DNA from: Chloroflexota bacterium
GTDB lineage: Bacteria > Chloroflexota > Dehalococcoidia > SHYB01
NCBI GenBank assembly: GCA_016875535.1
Contig: VGPF01000004.1
Span: 1,588-65,587 of the forward strand
Direction of reading: 5' to 3'
DNA: 64,000 bases
Part shown: one piece after another, positions 3,061 through 48,301 of the stretch
How positions within the stretch are numbered: position 1 is the first letter of the stretch
Layout of the letters: every line of letters begins with the position of its first letter
Position numbers and translations under genes: made by a program
The notes under the pieces: generated by a model
What the model was told of the DNA's origin: nothing
The model's database searches: none
Seen by the model: the letters and a program-made list of their open reading frames with translations, nothing else

Positions 3061-3103
3061 CTCGCTCCTTTCCTGCGGGCGACCATGCAAGATCGCCCTT
3101 CCA

Positions 3104-3355
3104 TCAGGTCCGCTCGCTCCTGCCCGCTGCCTCCATCTGCGCGACCTGCGGCTCCATCTTCCGCTCCGCCTCCTCCAGCGCCCCCCGCGCGCTGAGCAGC
3201 TCTTCGAACAGCTCCCGGCGTTCCTTGCGGAAGGCCTCCAGCGCCGCTTCGAAGGCCGCGTTATAGGCCGCCTCCGCCCGGGCCAGCCGCGCCTTCGCCC
3301 GGCAATAGGCCCGCAGCATCGTCTCCGCCTCGCTCAATCCTTCGCGCCACTGCAT
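3104..3355 (-). CDS. Hypothetical coiled-coil protein (83 aa)
   Basis: Ala/Glu-rich heptad-like sequence. In the operon array with its neighbours. Confidence 0.45.
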   Translation of the reverse strand: MQWREGLSEAETMLRAYCRAKARLARAEAAYNAAFEAALEAFRKERRELFEELLSARGALEEAERKMEPQVAQMEAAGRSERT

Positions 3356-35940: not shown

Positions 35941-36161
35941 ATCGCGTGCGCACGTGCGCGCGACATATAGTACCACTGGCCATCCAGACTGAAGAGCTTA
36001 CCCGAAGCCGCCTCTTATGCCGTTGCCCCTCCTCTGAAGCCTATGGTATGCTTTCCGGGTCCTTCTCCCCCTGTGAACGGGGGCATTTCGCCCGGCGCGC
36101 AACCCCAGCGTACCGCCCGGCGTTCCCTGATGGACAAGCGTTGGCGTGAGAGTCTGGTCGG

Positions 36162-36224
36162 CGGGGCGTGCGCGGTCCATAGCGCATCCCGAGCGGCTCG
36201 GGAGGGTTCCGAGTTCGCGATTGT
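36162..36224 (+). pseudogene. Truncated tRNA-like fragment (acceptor and D-arm intact, aberrant anticodon arm, partial T-arm)
   Basis: CGGGGCG-TG-CGCG...GCGC...GGTTCCGAGTTCG mirrors tRNA-Pro positions 1-25 and 45-58. Bounded by 24-bp direct repeats GTGAGAGTCTGGTCGGCGGGGCGT at 36146 and 36225. Confidence 0.55.
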
Positions 36225-36240
36225 GTGAGAGTCTGGTCGG

Positions 36241-36317
36241 CGGGGCGTAGCGCAGCCCGGTAGCGCACCTGCATGGGGTGCAGGGGGTCCCGAGTTCAAA
36301 TCTCGGCGCCCCGACCA
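36241..36317 (+). tRNA. tRNA-Pro (anticodon GGG)
   Basis: Manual fold: C1:G72 (hallmark of bacterial tRNA-Pro). D-stem GCGC. Anticodon stem CCTGC/GCAGG with loop AT-GGG-GT. T-arm CCGAG-TTCAAAT-CTCGG. Encoded CCA. Confidence 0.85.
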
Positions 36318-36351
36318 GTTCTTCTTTTCTCTACCACAGGCCTTAGGCCGA

Positions 36352-36403
36352 CTGCATGGGGCGCGAGGGGGTCCTCCGGTGCAGAACCGGAGCGCCCCGA
36401 CCA
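36352..36403 (+). pseudogene. Diverged tRNA 3'-half fragment (anticodon loop through ACCA)
   Basis: CTGCATGGGG...TCCTCCGG-TGCAGAA-CCGGAG-CGCCCCG-ACCA parallels the tRNA-Pro 3' half. Lies 35 nt downstream of the intact tRNA. Confidence 0.5.
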
Positions 36404-36470
36404 GTCTTTCCGCCTGCATTGACGCTCGCCGCGCCGTGGCATAGGCTGGCGGCCATAGGAGGCTGAGGCC

Positions 36471-39264: not shown

Positions 39265-39509
39265 CGGCGCGACTCGCGAACGAGAACCCCTTCGGCCTCG
39301 CCGCCGGCATCTGGACCAGGGACATCACCAAGGCTCGCCGCCTGGCCGGAGCGCTCAAGGCCGGCTCCGTGTGGGTCAACTGCTTTCAGGCGGCCGATCC
39401 CGCCGTTCCCTTCGGCGGCTACAAGCTCAGCGGCTTCGGCCGTGAGAGCGGCACGGAGCAGTACGAGCATTCCCTCGAGACGAAGGCCGTCTGGATCAAG
39501 CTGGGCTAG
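39265..39509 (+). pseudogene. Aldehyde dehydrogenase C-terminal fragment (~80 aa) without an N-terminal body
   Basis: RLANENPFGLAAGIWTRD...PFGGYKLSGFGRESG matches the ALDH C-terminal consensus. It starts immediately after the upstream stop. Confidence 0.7.
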
Positions 39510-39514
39510 CCGAT

Positions 39515-39850
39515 GCGCTCCCGCGAAACGATCGCGCCGCAGCCGCCAGCGAGACGGAGAGCGCCCTCGCCCGCCTCCTGGTCGTCGTCGAGAACTACCC
39601 GCAGATCGCATCCGCCCAGAACGTGCGCGCCCTGCAAGCCCAGCTTGAAGGCACCGAGAACCGCATCTCCGTCGAGCGCCCCCGCTACAACGATGCGGTC
39701 CTGAGCCTCAACAACGCCGTCCGGCGCTTCCCCAGCAACGTCGTCGCTGGCATGTTCGGCTTCGAGAAGCGCACCTACTTCAACGCCGCCCCAGGGACCG
39801 ATGTCGCTCCGCCGGTGAACTTCGGCCGCACGCCAACGCCCTCGAGATAG
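39515..39850 (+). pseudogene. LemA-family C-terminal fragment
   Basis: LLVVVENYPQIASAQNVRALQAQLEGTENRISVERPRYNDAV...FPSNVVAGMFGFEKRTYF is the LemA C-terminal consensus. The N-terminal TM and first half are missing. Confidence 0.65.
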
Positions 39851-47859: not shown

Positions 47860-47933
47860 TGCCCCGTTGTGTAGCGGTAGCACAGAGGACTTTGGATCCT
47901 TTAGCCCTGGTTCGAATCCAGGCGGGGCAGCCA
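47860..47933 (+). tRNA. tRNA-Gln (anticodon TTG)
   Basis: Manual fold: U1:A72 (as in bacterial tRNA-Gln). 3-bp D-stem. Anticodon stem GAGGA/TCCTT with loop CT-TTG-GA. T-arm CCTGG-TTCGAAT-CCAGG. Encoded CCA. Confidence 0.8.
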
Positions 47934-48028
47934 TTCCACTCGCTTCGCTCGCTCATGGCTTCCAGCCGCGGAAAGCGAGTCGAATGCACTGAGCGACGAG
48001 CGTGAGCGAGGAGCCGAAGGGTATCAAC

Positions 48029-48301
48029 ATGTCCTATACCATCTACGTGCTTCGTTTTGCGGACAACAGTCTGTATATCGGTCAGACAGGCAACTTACAG
48101 GCCCGATTGCGAGAGCATTTGCACGGCGCATCAAAAGGGGCGAAGTTCACAAGAGAGCACGGTAATTTTCAGCTTGCATACCAGGAGAGGTATCAGACCA
48201 GAACAGCGACAATGGAAAGAGAACAGCAGCTCAAGAGGTGCACAAGGGCAAAGAACGAAGCCTTGATTTCTGGAGTTCTGGAATTGCTAAGACGACTCTG
48301 A
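48029..48301 (+). CDS. GIY-YIG nuclease family protein
   Basis: YTIYVL...LYIGQTGNLQARLREH motif. Confidence 0.75.
   Translation: MSYTIYVLRFADNSLYIGQTGNLQARLREHLHGASKGAKFTREHGNFQLAYQERYQTRTATMEREQQLKRCTRAKNEALISGVLELLRRL

Follow-up and report, generated by a model that had tools for sequence, protein, structure and literature searches.

A gene for tRNA-Pro(GGG) on a contig of an uncultured Chloroflexota bacterium is bordered on both sides by sequences that resemble parts of the same gene, which raises the question of what these partial copies are and how they came to surround an intact tRNA gene. A preliminary description of the locus had interpreted them as scars of site-specific integration and excision, or of replication slippage, and had considered a fossil attachment site. 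Here, we have analysed this arrangement in the window, a term that we use for the entire 64-kb stretch of DNA under study, and in related genomes and contigs, which are referred to by L-numbers. In the reading that we favour, with a probability of about 0.6, the fragments are non-functional partial duplicates of the tRNA gene, old relics that are kept as a short tandem array and that are gained and lost by recombination. The 3' end of tRNA-Pro, in our best reading, also serves as insertion site.

Anatomy of the tRNA-Pro(GGG) locus

The locus resides between a gene coding for a DsbA-like thioredoxin on the minus strand and a gene coding for an Amidohydro_2 enzyme on the plus strand. It contains the following elements:

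36023..36052, + strand: putative promoter of the tRNA-Pro transcription unit, read from sequence (TTGCCC, 18-nt spacer, TATGCT)
36067..36090, + strand: leader hairpin CCCCC-UGUGAAC-GGGGG, formed in the minimum-free-energy fold, and subsequent CAUUUCG
36091..36145, + strand: possible older, heavily decayed 5' unit (unit A), tentative, aligning at the position of unit A in L013
36146..36224, + strand: 5' pseudo-tRNA unit (unit B), 79 nt, defined by repeat D1 and by the alignment of tRNA bases 1-57
36225..36240, + strand: leader of the live gene, containing part of inverted repeat I5, with the same leader found in L010, L013 and L032
36241..36317, + strand: functional tRNA-Pro(GGG) with encoded CCA, identified by ARAGORN and by Rfam RF00005 (60.2 bits in a local scan)
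36318..36351, + strand: trailer 1, a pyrimidine-rich stretch and the 5' half of the ancestral terminator hairpin (CAGGCCTTAGGCC), then the junction GA
36352..36403, + strand: 3' pseudo-tRNA unit, 52 nt, corresponding to tRNA bases 28-76 (repeats D2 and D4)
36404..36447, + strand: trailer 2 (GTCTTTCC), then the putative promoter of the amidohydrolase gene, as judged from its letters
36419..36424 and 36442..36447, + strand: TTGACG and TAGGCT of the putative amidohydrolase promoter, separated by a 17-nt spacer

The intact gene with a truncated copy on its 5' side and a diverged 3' half on the other, as initially described, is confirmed by ARAGORN, by Rfam, by the repeats and by alignments of the flanks against shuffled sequences. 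In local alignments of the tRNA with its own flanks, we obtain scores of 31 upstream and 45 downstream, compared to a shuffle maximum of 23-24. The live gene was missed in a whole-window Rfam scan at the gathering threshold, which is an artefact of the filter.

On the upstream side, an exact 24-nt repeat (GTGAGAGTCTGGTCGGCGGGGCGT) is found at 36146-36169 and 36225-36248, which extends to 32 nt at 91% identity (repeat D1). This repeat had been placed ahead of both copies of the gene, a position that has to be corrected since it is composed of 16 nt of leader and of bases 1-8 of the tRNA itself. The tRNA-like stretch that follows the leader part of the first repeat copy encompasses 63 nt. As a whole, unit B starts with a 16-nt copy of the leader and continues with the acceptor 5' strand, a hairpin resembling a D-arm, a second hairpin (TCCCGAG-CGG-CTCGGGA) and the 5' strand of a T-arm, for which there is no partner. 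The latter hairpin had been noted before with a loop of 4 nt, whereas the loop comprises 3 nt, or 5 nt if the stem is restricted to 6 bp. On the downstream side, the anticodon stem of the 3' unit is broken and its T-arm is altered (CTCCGG-TGCAGAA-CCGGAG), and its acceptor 3' strand including ACCA is intact. This unit matches the live gene in two blocks of 19 nt each, one starting with CTGCATGGGG at 84% identity (D4) and the other with GCGCCCCGACCAGT at 89% (D2). Unit B directly adjoins the live gene (0 nt) and the 3' unit follows at a distance of 34 nt, one less than had been stated.

Both units are arranged head to tail, with a spacing from start to start of 79 nt on the 5' side and of 83-86 nt on the 3' side (86 nt in L005), and thus display the near-constant period of a tandem array that evolves by unequal recombination. 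The array is not called by Tandem Repeats Finder because its units are too diverged. The stretch at 36091-36145 may be a further and much more decayed 5' unit; its sole match to the units of L013 is the 11-nt GCGCAACCCCA, a similarity that was equalled or beaten in 1-2 of 500 shuffles and that does not align under stricter scoring. No additional copy of the 24-nt repeat was detected within the 64-kb window when allowing for up to 3 mismatches. The window is equally devoid of further copies of the live and pseudo 3' ends, of the leader/acceptor block and of the 5' unit, and hence of the far attR, for which a genome search with the tRNA-Pro 3' end had been proposed.

The live gene has the same sequence in the window, L009/L010 and L013, and the last 8 nt of its leader (CTGGTCGG) have their complement in CCGACCAG at the tRNA 3' end (inverted repeat I5). 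The segment at 36023-36052 is its putative promoter: the window and L013 agree at 31 of 34 positions and the motif is kept in L010 and L032, although it was not called in a simple sigma-70 scan. At the matching position of the leader, a hairpin with a U run is also found in L010, L013, L032 and L012. Trailer 1 of the window can be aligned with L010 and with the right side of L032, where the trailer leads into an intact terminator (CCCCAGGCCTTTGCCTGGGG-CCATTTT). Further downstream, ATTGACGCTC from the region 36404-36447 is kept in four out of four species, and the TTGACG/TAGGCT pair would serve as promoter of the amidohydrolase gene.

The flanking fragments are not tRNAs

We next turn to the identity of the fragments. 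In ARAGORN runs with default and lowered thresholds, with and without introns, only the segment 36241-36317 is called and neither of the two flanking fragments, and the Rfam tRNA model at E-values up to 10 equally matches the live gene alone. This pseudogene-tolerant prediction, which had been proposed as a check of the locus, rules out valid alternative tRNAs in the flanks, irrespective of whether introns are permitted or the fragments are joined. Specifically, chimeras of the 5' and 3' units, constructed for the window and for L013, did not yield any ARAGORN call even at lowered thresholds, and we have consequently dropped a split or intron-containing tRNA as candidate. A canonical tRNA has both acceptor strands, an anticodon loop of 7 nt and a T-loop of the TPsiC type, a combination found in neither fragment: the 5' unit is devoid of the acceptor 3' strand and the T-stem 3' strand and carries a hairpin loop of 3-5 nt, and the 3' unit lacks the 5' half, retains only 3 pairs of the anticodon stem and contains the T-loop TGCAGAA. 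The locus is also not part of a universally conserved functional tRNA array, a possibility raised at the outset, since the fragments are absent from L010 and from 19 other tRNA-Pro(GGG) loci.

Similarly, we do not find the fragments to correspond to other described RNAs. A search against Rfam 15, which includes rtT, returned at E-values up to 10 only the tRNA and one spurious lncRNA match of 14.9 bits. In a scan for consensus terminators between 35800 and 36600, no terminator was detected on the + strand, and the hairpin of the 3' unit does not have the appearance of an intrinsic terminator, as it is followed by GACCAGUCUUUCC and the U-rich stretch begins 7 nt later. The fold energies of six units (four 3' and two 5' units) are no better than those of shuffled sequences (z-scores of -1.3 to +0.85), and the same applies to the entire region, with non-significant z-scores of -1.4 and -1.7. 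A selected RNA structure is therefore not indicated by folding. These results support the assignment of the flanking fragments as non-functional partial duplicates, with their lack of function being the more indirect part of this assignment.

The arrangement is shared by related species

To place the fragments in an evolutionary context, we have recovered the syntenic DsbA / tRNA-Pro / amidohydrolase locus from three species-level relatives. L009/L010 were found via the amidohydrolase (87% identical), L032/L033 (GCA_005802045.1) via DsbA (80% identical) and L013 (CAMAVV010000022.1) by a scan of species-representative genomes. Pairwise protein and DNA identities, taken from two genes only, define the tree (window,(L013,(L032,L010))), where L032 and L010 show 93% DNA identity. 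In L013, the live gene is accompanied by two 5' units, A and B, which are identical or nearly so over about 57 nt, and by one 3' unit. L032 contains the 3' unit and no 5' unit, and L010 a single tRNA with the same leader and an intact terminator, and neither of the units. The orthology of the fragments is evident from alignment scores: the 5' unit of L013 scores 74 compared to a shuffle maximum of 24, and the 3' units of L013 and L032 score 84 and 76, with shuffle maxima of 25-31.

In the window, L013 and L032, trailer 1 and the 3' unit meet at a common junction (GGCCGA|CTGCAT), which splits the ancestral terminator hairpin in its loop, and the 3' duplication consequently predates these species. 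Since L010 is nested within the tree, its clean single tRNA is best read as a loss of the fragments, an outcome that recombination between two trailer copies such as those of L032 (33 nt, 29/33) would be expected to produce. The comparison with close relatives, which had been proposed as a check, shows that the scar is neither recent nor private, as the arrangement is common to three species-level relatives.

Beyond these genomes, a weaker match to the 3' unit (35 versus 27), at the same distance from tRNA-Pro, is present in the non-syntenic L012, a MAG from deep Lake Baikal. No flank copies were found at the 19 other tRNA-Pro(GGG) loci, which are from more distant Chloroflexota, and a scan of metagenome contigs returned only three unrelated, ordinary tRNA-Pro loci.

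Copy number varies among close genomes

A comparison of very close genomes reveals differences in the number of units. The contig L005, whose amidohydrolase is identical to that of the window, begins within an array that comprises three or more tandem 3' units with a period of 86 nt. It contains a junction of a pseudo T-arm with a live-type trailer (TTCTTC..) that is absent from the window and that would be expected if the GCGCCCCGACCAG blocks of the live gene and the pseudo unit had recombined by unequal crossover. In L035 and L036, two independent Logan assemblies of one strain with 99% identical DsbA, the upstream region runs straight into the live gene without a 5' unit. Two hallmarks of a tandem array that evolves by unequal recombination are thus observed, namely copy-number differences among very close genomes and, in units A and B of L013, homogenisation within a genome. 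From the head-to-tail periods of 79-86 nt and this variation within one population, unequal recombination or slippage would be the process that currently acts on the array. Of the initial proposal, the status of the fragments as partial duplicates without function is supported.

An insertion at the tRNA 3' end and the relation to attachment sites

A different feature is observed in L032, where the 3' unit is followed by an insert of about 1.3 kb with a GC content of about 50%, compared to about 65% in its flanks. The 3' unit and the insert are bounded by a 33-nt direct repeat (29/33) that consists of the tRNA 3' end and trailer, and a third, weaker copy is found where the 3' unit ends. The ancestral trailer and terminator resume on the right-hand side of the insert, and L010 equals L032 minus everything between the outer repeats. 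The tRNA-Pro end with its trailer, or the pseudo copy thereof, is thus a place where foreign DNA enters and leaves.

The open reading frames of the insert could not be annotated. A 146-aa frame has no relative in viral contigs, and a 71-aa frame at the right end, at one point read as C-terminus of a tyrosine recombinase, was dropped as candidate since it did not match anything in Pfam, PHROGs, PDB, phage records, plasmid records or a set of 5.8 billion proteins. Consistent with the preliminary description, no integrase was found nearby, neither among the genes called in the surrounding 17 kb nor in a motif scan of all 64 kb.

These observations bear on the proposal that the fragments are purely the fossils of attachment sites. 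Two integrative elements, one crossing over at the anticodon stem-loop and carrying the 3' part of the gene, the other at the T-loop and carrying the 5' part, would have displaced pieces of the tRNA gene, and the later deletion of their interiors would have left attL and attR side by side. The configuration and orientation of the fragments conform to the signature of genomic islands, and the start of the 3' unit at base 28 and the end of the 5' unit in the T-loop coincide with the anticodon stem and the T-loop, the two crossover sublocations that are usual for tRNA genes (PMC4383910). The low-GC insert at the 3' unit of L032 with its bounding repeat and the resemblance of L010 to a clean excision are equally in line with this scenario, as is the distant genome L028, where tRNA-Pro(GGG) is preceded by a frameshifted N-terminus of a serine recombinase (PF00239) that was recognised at E = 3.4e-4, below the curated cut-off. 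Conversely, neither the window nor the 71-aa frame of L032 provides an integrase, and three scans of viral contigs, one each for the 5' unit and for the live and the pseudo 3' half, did not return a single match. Moreover, the gaps of 0 and 34 nt would require two clean deletions of exactly the interiors of both elements, in L013 the 3' unit is followed by a decayed ancestral trailer with no foreign DNA in between, as predicted for a plain tandem duplication, and copy number shifts by whole units within one population. On balance, we regard an origin of the locus solely from attachment sites as unlikely. The earlier suggestion of a fossil att site thus holds with respect to the orientation of the fragments and the bounded insert of L032, and it fails with respect to an integrase remnant and a viral attP.

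A nested arrangement, in which the live tRNA would have been inserted into an older copy of itself, was discarded because the 5' and 3' units are dissimilar in their overlap (bases 28-57), which leaves no shared att core.

Decay and unexpected conservation of the units

Parts of the units drift between species. In the 3' unit, the anticodon triplet varies between GGG, GGC and AGG among the three species that carry this unit, and the T-loop, TGCAGAA in the window, differs in sequence and length in the others. Still, a comparison of the window with L013 gives identities of 76% for the 5' unit and 83% for the 3' unit, whereas the adjacent gene reaches only 45% at its fourfold-degenerate sites and no alignment is possible for the spacer that precedes the tRNA-Pro promoter. 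The conservation of the units is thus above what simple neutral decay predicts. It includes stretches that are unlike the live tRNA, with 25/33 identities between the D-loop and the hairpin and 19/24 in the altered T-arm, and gene conversion from the live gene cannot account for these parts.

This conservation could reflect selection, with the 5' modules and the 3' hairpin being functional parts of the tRNA-Pro precursor. Possible roles would be a clamp between leader and trailer that guides or delays processing, a replacement for the terminator that was broken by the duplication, or a decoy. In accordance with such roles, hairpin stems are kept and loops vary between species, and downstream of the 3' unit, CCGACCAGTCTTTC provides a pairing partner for the leader of unit B (GAGAGTCTGGTCGG; 14 nt, 86%, inverted repeat I4) in an interaction that closes the minimum-free-energy fold of the entire region. 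Additionally, the pair between leader and tRNA 3' end covaries in L013, where TTGGTCGG faces CCGACCAA, and in the window, where the original terminator is gone, the 3' unit provides the only strong hairpin before the next promoter. These properties are opposed by the presence and absence of units among close strains and sister species, by the lack of co-occurrence of 5' and 3' units, since L032 and probably also L035 and L036 have a 3' unit without a 5' unit, and by fold energies that resemble those of shuffled sequences for single units and the whole region. Also, there is neither an Rfam family at E-values up to 10 nor a + strand terminator call, the anticodon-loop part drifts freely, the pair between leader and tRNA 3' end is broken in L032, and no clear compensatory change was seen in the hairpin stems among the species compared. 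We thus consider functional RNA elements in the flanks to be rather improbable.

A more specific version, in which the pseudo modules would be selected cis-acting elements of the tRNA-Pro(GGG) precursor whose acceptor, leader and trailer copies pair into a clamp controlling processing, stability or termination, appears very doubtful. If true, it would explain the 76-83% identity of the units despite near-saturated synonymous sites, and the leader hairpin, whose conserved loop ACCCCUU is complementary to the anticodon loop of tRNA-Pro, could be part of the same control. Selection as cause of the high conservation would describe a hitherto unreported way to build signals for pre-tRNA processing or termination from tRNA copies, which is not favoured by the present evidence.

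Finally, a mis-assembly of metagenomic reads around the tRNA gene, for which one could invoke the contigs L005, L035 and L036 that end inside repeats and hence illustrate the difficulties of assemblers in this region, is hardly credible in light of a 530-nt intergenic sequence with tRNA-Pro and fragments that is identical in four assemblies (L001-L004), which are independent and derive from two sources and different samples, of orthologous arrangements from unrelated projects (L013, L032/L033) and of shared exact blocks of 14-24 nt, which we take to be below usual assembly k-mers so that no collapse or false joins are expected. The exact amidohydrolase protein of the window is also found on metagenome contigs from JGI and ENA.

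Discussion

Our analysis favours a history of the locus as a short tandem array of partial tRNA-Pro duplicates. In this history, two duplications would have occurred in the ancestor of a species-level group of Chloroflexota: an upstream one encompassing the leader and tRNA bases 1 to about 57, with a period of 79 nt, and a downstream one encompassing bases 28-76 and about 34 nt of trailer, which would end inside the original terminator hairpin and establish the period of 83-86 nt. Units would subsequently be added and removed by recombination between short identical blocks, of 24 nt on the 5' side and 14 nt on the 3' side. An exchange with the live gene or between units is a likely reason why these blocks stay identical while the remainder decays. 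Unequal crossover or slippage, rather than a recombinase, and gene conversion would be the processes at work. With respect to the first duplications, the insertion of foreign DNA at the pseudo tRNA end and trailer of L032 implies that they could stem from integration and excision instead of slippage. Slippage or unequal exchange and integration with excision leave the same structure, and either may have given rise to the first duplications.

The locus offers a small and well-documented case of the ends of tRNA genes gathering duplications and insertions in uncultured Chloroflexota. It illustrates that such fragments can outlast speciation and act as a miniature tandem array, with copy-number variants visible inside one lake population.

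The arrangement can be compared to several known systems. The rtT locus that follows tyrT in E. coli consists of tandem units of about 178 bp, which contain the 3'-terminal segment of tRNA-Tyr, are co-transcribed and are thought to originate from unequal recombination. Both loci share tandem units after a tRNA gene that carry its 3'-terminal segment, whereas their sequences are unrelated, with no Rfam match to rtT in our locus, and the units of rtT are longer and have no 5' counterpart. Split, permuted and intron-containing tRNA genes are known from organisms such as Nanoarchaeum and Cyanidioschyzon. As in split and permuted genes, 5' and 3' parts are encoded apart and leader and trailer are complementary. 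Unlike in these genes, the joined fragments do not make a tRNA, the D-, anticodon- and T-loops are defective, and a normal live copy lies between them in a bacterial host.

Closer in phylogeny are the serial 20-bp direct repeats of the ssrA 3' end in Dehalococcoides, which have whole islands of several kb between them and are associated with a serine integrase module (PMC3146451). The two cases concern the same phylum and have in common serial copies of a 3' end downstream of a live gene, a number of copies that varies between strains and a connection to inserted DNA. In contrast to ssrA, the units described here measure 52-86 nt and are directly adjacent, and no recombinase was seen.

Fragments of tRNA genes left behind by integration have precedents in the literature (PMC4383910, PMC9897764). 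Partial, non-canonical tRNA genes of prokaryotes that are found beside canonical ones commonly result from the integration of elements and are mis-called by predictors (PMC9897764). The fragments of our locus equally reside next to a canonical gene and should not be counted as tRNAs, with the difference that predictors ignore them. In practical terms, they should be annotated neither as tRNA genes nor as functional pseudogenes.

In the signature used by Islander, fragments of the cognate tRNA gene, either of its 3' part downstream or of its 5' part upstream and in the same orientation, constitute the expected configuration of displaced fragments at islands (PMC4383910). This configuration is found here, with an intact tRNA gene, fragments of the same orientation that terminate at the anticodon stem and the T-loop, and a relative with repeat-bounded, low-GC DNA. 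The integrase that Islander expects between tRNA gene and fragment (PMC4383910) is found neither in the window nor in the insert of L032, and compared to its island length of 2-200 kb, the window has no insert and that of L032 measures about 1.3 kb. The locus further departs from this signature in having no island in the window, gaps of 0-34 nt, both kinds of fragments around one gene, a trailer that is duplicated together with the 3' fragment and a number of units that varies like a tandem repeat. With these similarities and differences, the locus adds a further example to a known and fairly ordinary type of genome scar.

Detection of tRNA genes and other features of the window

When the whole window (1-64000) was scanned with Rfam at gathering thresholds, only tRNA-Gln was reported and tRNA-Pro was missed, while a local Rfam scan assigns tRNA-Pro a score of 60.2 bits. 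The omission is an artefact of the speed filter, which calls for caution with other windows. The tRNA-Gln(TTG) is directly followed by a small putative GIY-YIG-like open reading frame (MSYTIYVLRFADNSLYIGQTGNL...; both within 47860-48301), whose likeness to this family was recognized by eye, and the GC content drops to 58% in this region. A second stretch of low GC content (52-56%) is located at 60-62 kb. Downstream of the NIPSNAP gene, positions 39369-39850 hold a 46-residue aldehyde dehydrogenase fragment and a LemA reading frame of 75 residues, the latter corresponding to a full LemA of 199 residues in the related species L009. This segment is a site of local gene decay or of an indel.

Variation downstream of the tRNA-Pro gene

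In a contig from the window's own population (L005), positions 1-215 contain at least three tandem 3' pseudo units with a period of 86 nt, a population variant whose copy number is a lower bound as the contig starts inside the array. A different change is found in a related species:

L032, 2400-3650 (same in L033): insert of 1.3 kb with about 50% GC, flanked by the 3' pseudo unit and the ancestral terminator

The sister genome L010 does not contain this insert, and its reading frames (146-149 and 144 residues) show no family match.

Other tRNA-Pro(GGG) loci

A distant Dehalococcoidia MAG (L028) carries the frameshifted N-terminal part of a serine recombinase (IYTRVSTDAQ..., minus strand, ~3100-3250) some 200 nt upstream of its tRNA-Pro(GGG) gene. 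With the frameshift repaired, this fragment matches PF00239 with an E-value of 3.4e-4, a match that does not reach the curated cut-off. In the terminator hairpin that follows tRNA-Pro(GGG) at two further loci (L008, 2050-2095; L006, 3000-3050, minus strand), the loop contains CCGCATGGGGTGG, a near copy of the anticodon stem-loop of this tRNA (score 23 vs. a shuffle maximum of 18).

Complementarity and a conserved hairpin in the tRNA-Pro leader

The final eight nucleotides of the leader (36233-36240, CTGGTCGG) are complementary to CCGACCAG at 36311-36318, which comprises the acceptor 3' end, ACCA and a G. All four related species show this complementarity, but it was not seen at any of the 19 other tRNA-Pro(GGG) loci that were examined. 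In the relative L013 the two segments covary (TTGGTCGG / CCGACCAA); in L032 the pairing is disrupted. Further upstream, a conserved promoter-like motif precedes a hairpin and U run that lie inside the leader:

window, 36023-36090
L010 (single-tRNA relative), 1020-1100
L012 (non-syntenic Lake Baikal MAG), upstream of tRNA-Pro

The motif consists of TTGCCS and TATGCT separated by an 18-nt spacer and is directly followed by the hairpin and U run. The loop of this hairpin has the sequence ACCCCUU(Y) in L010, L032 and L012 and is complementary to the tRNA-Pro anticodon loop AUGGGGU. The hairpin with its U run looks like an attenuator placed ahead of a tRNA gene.
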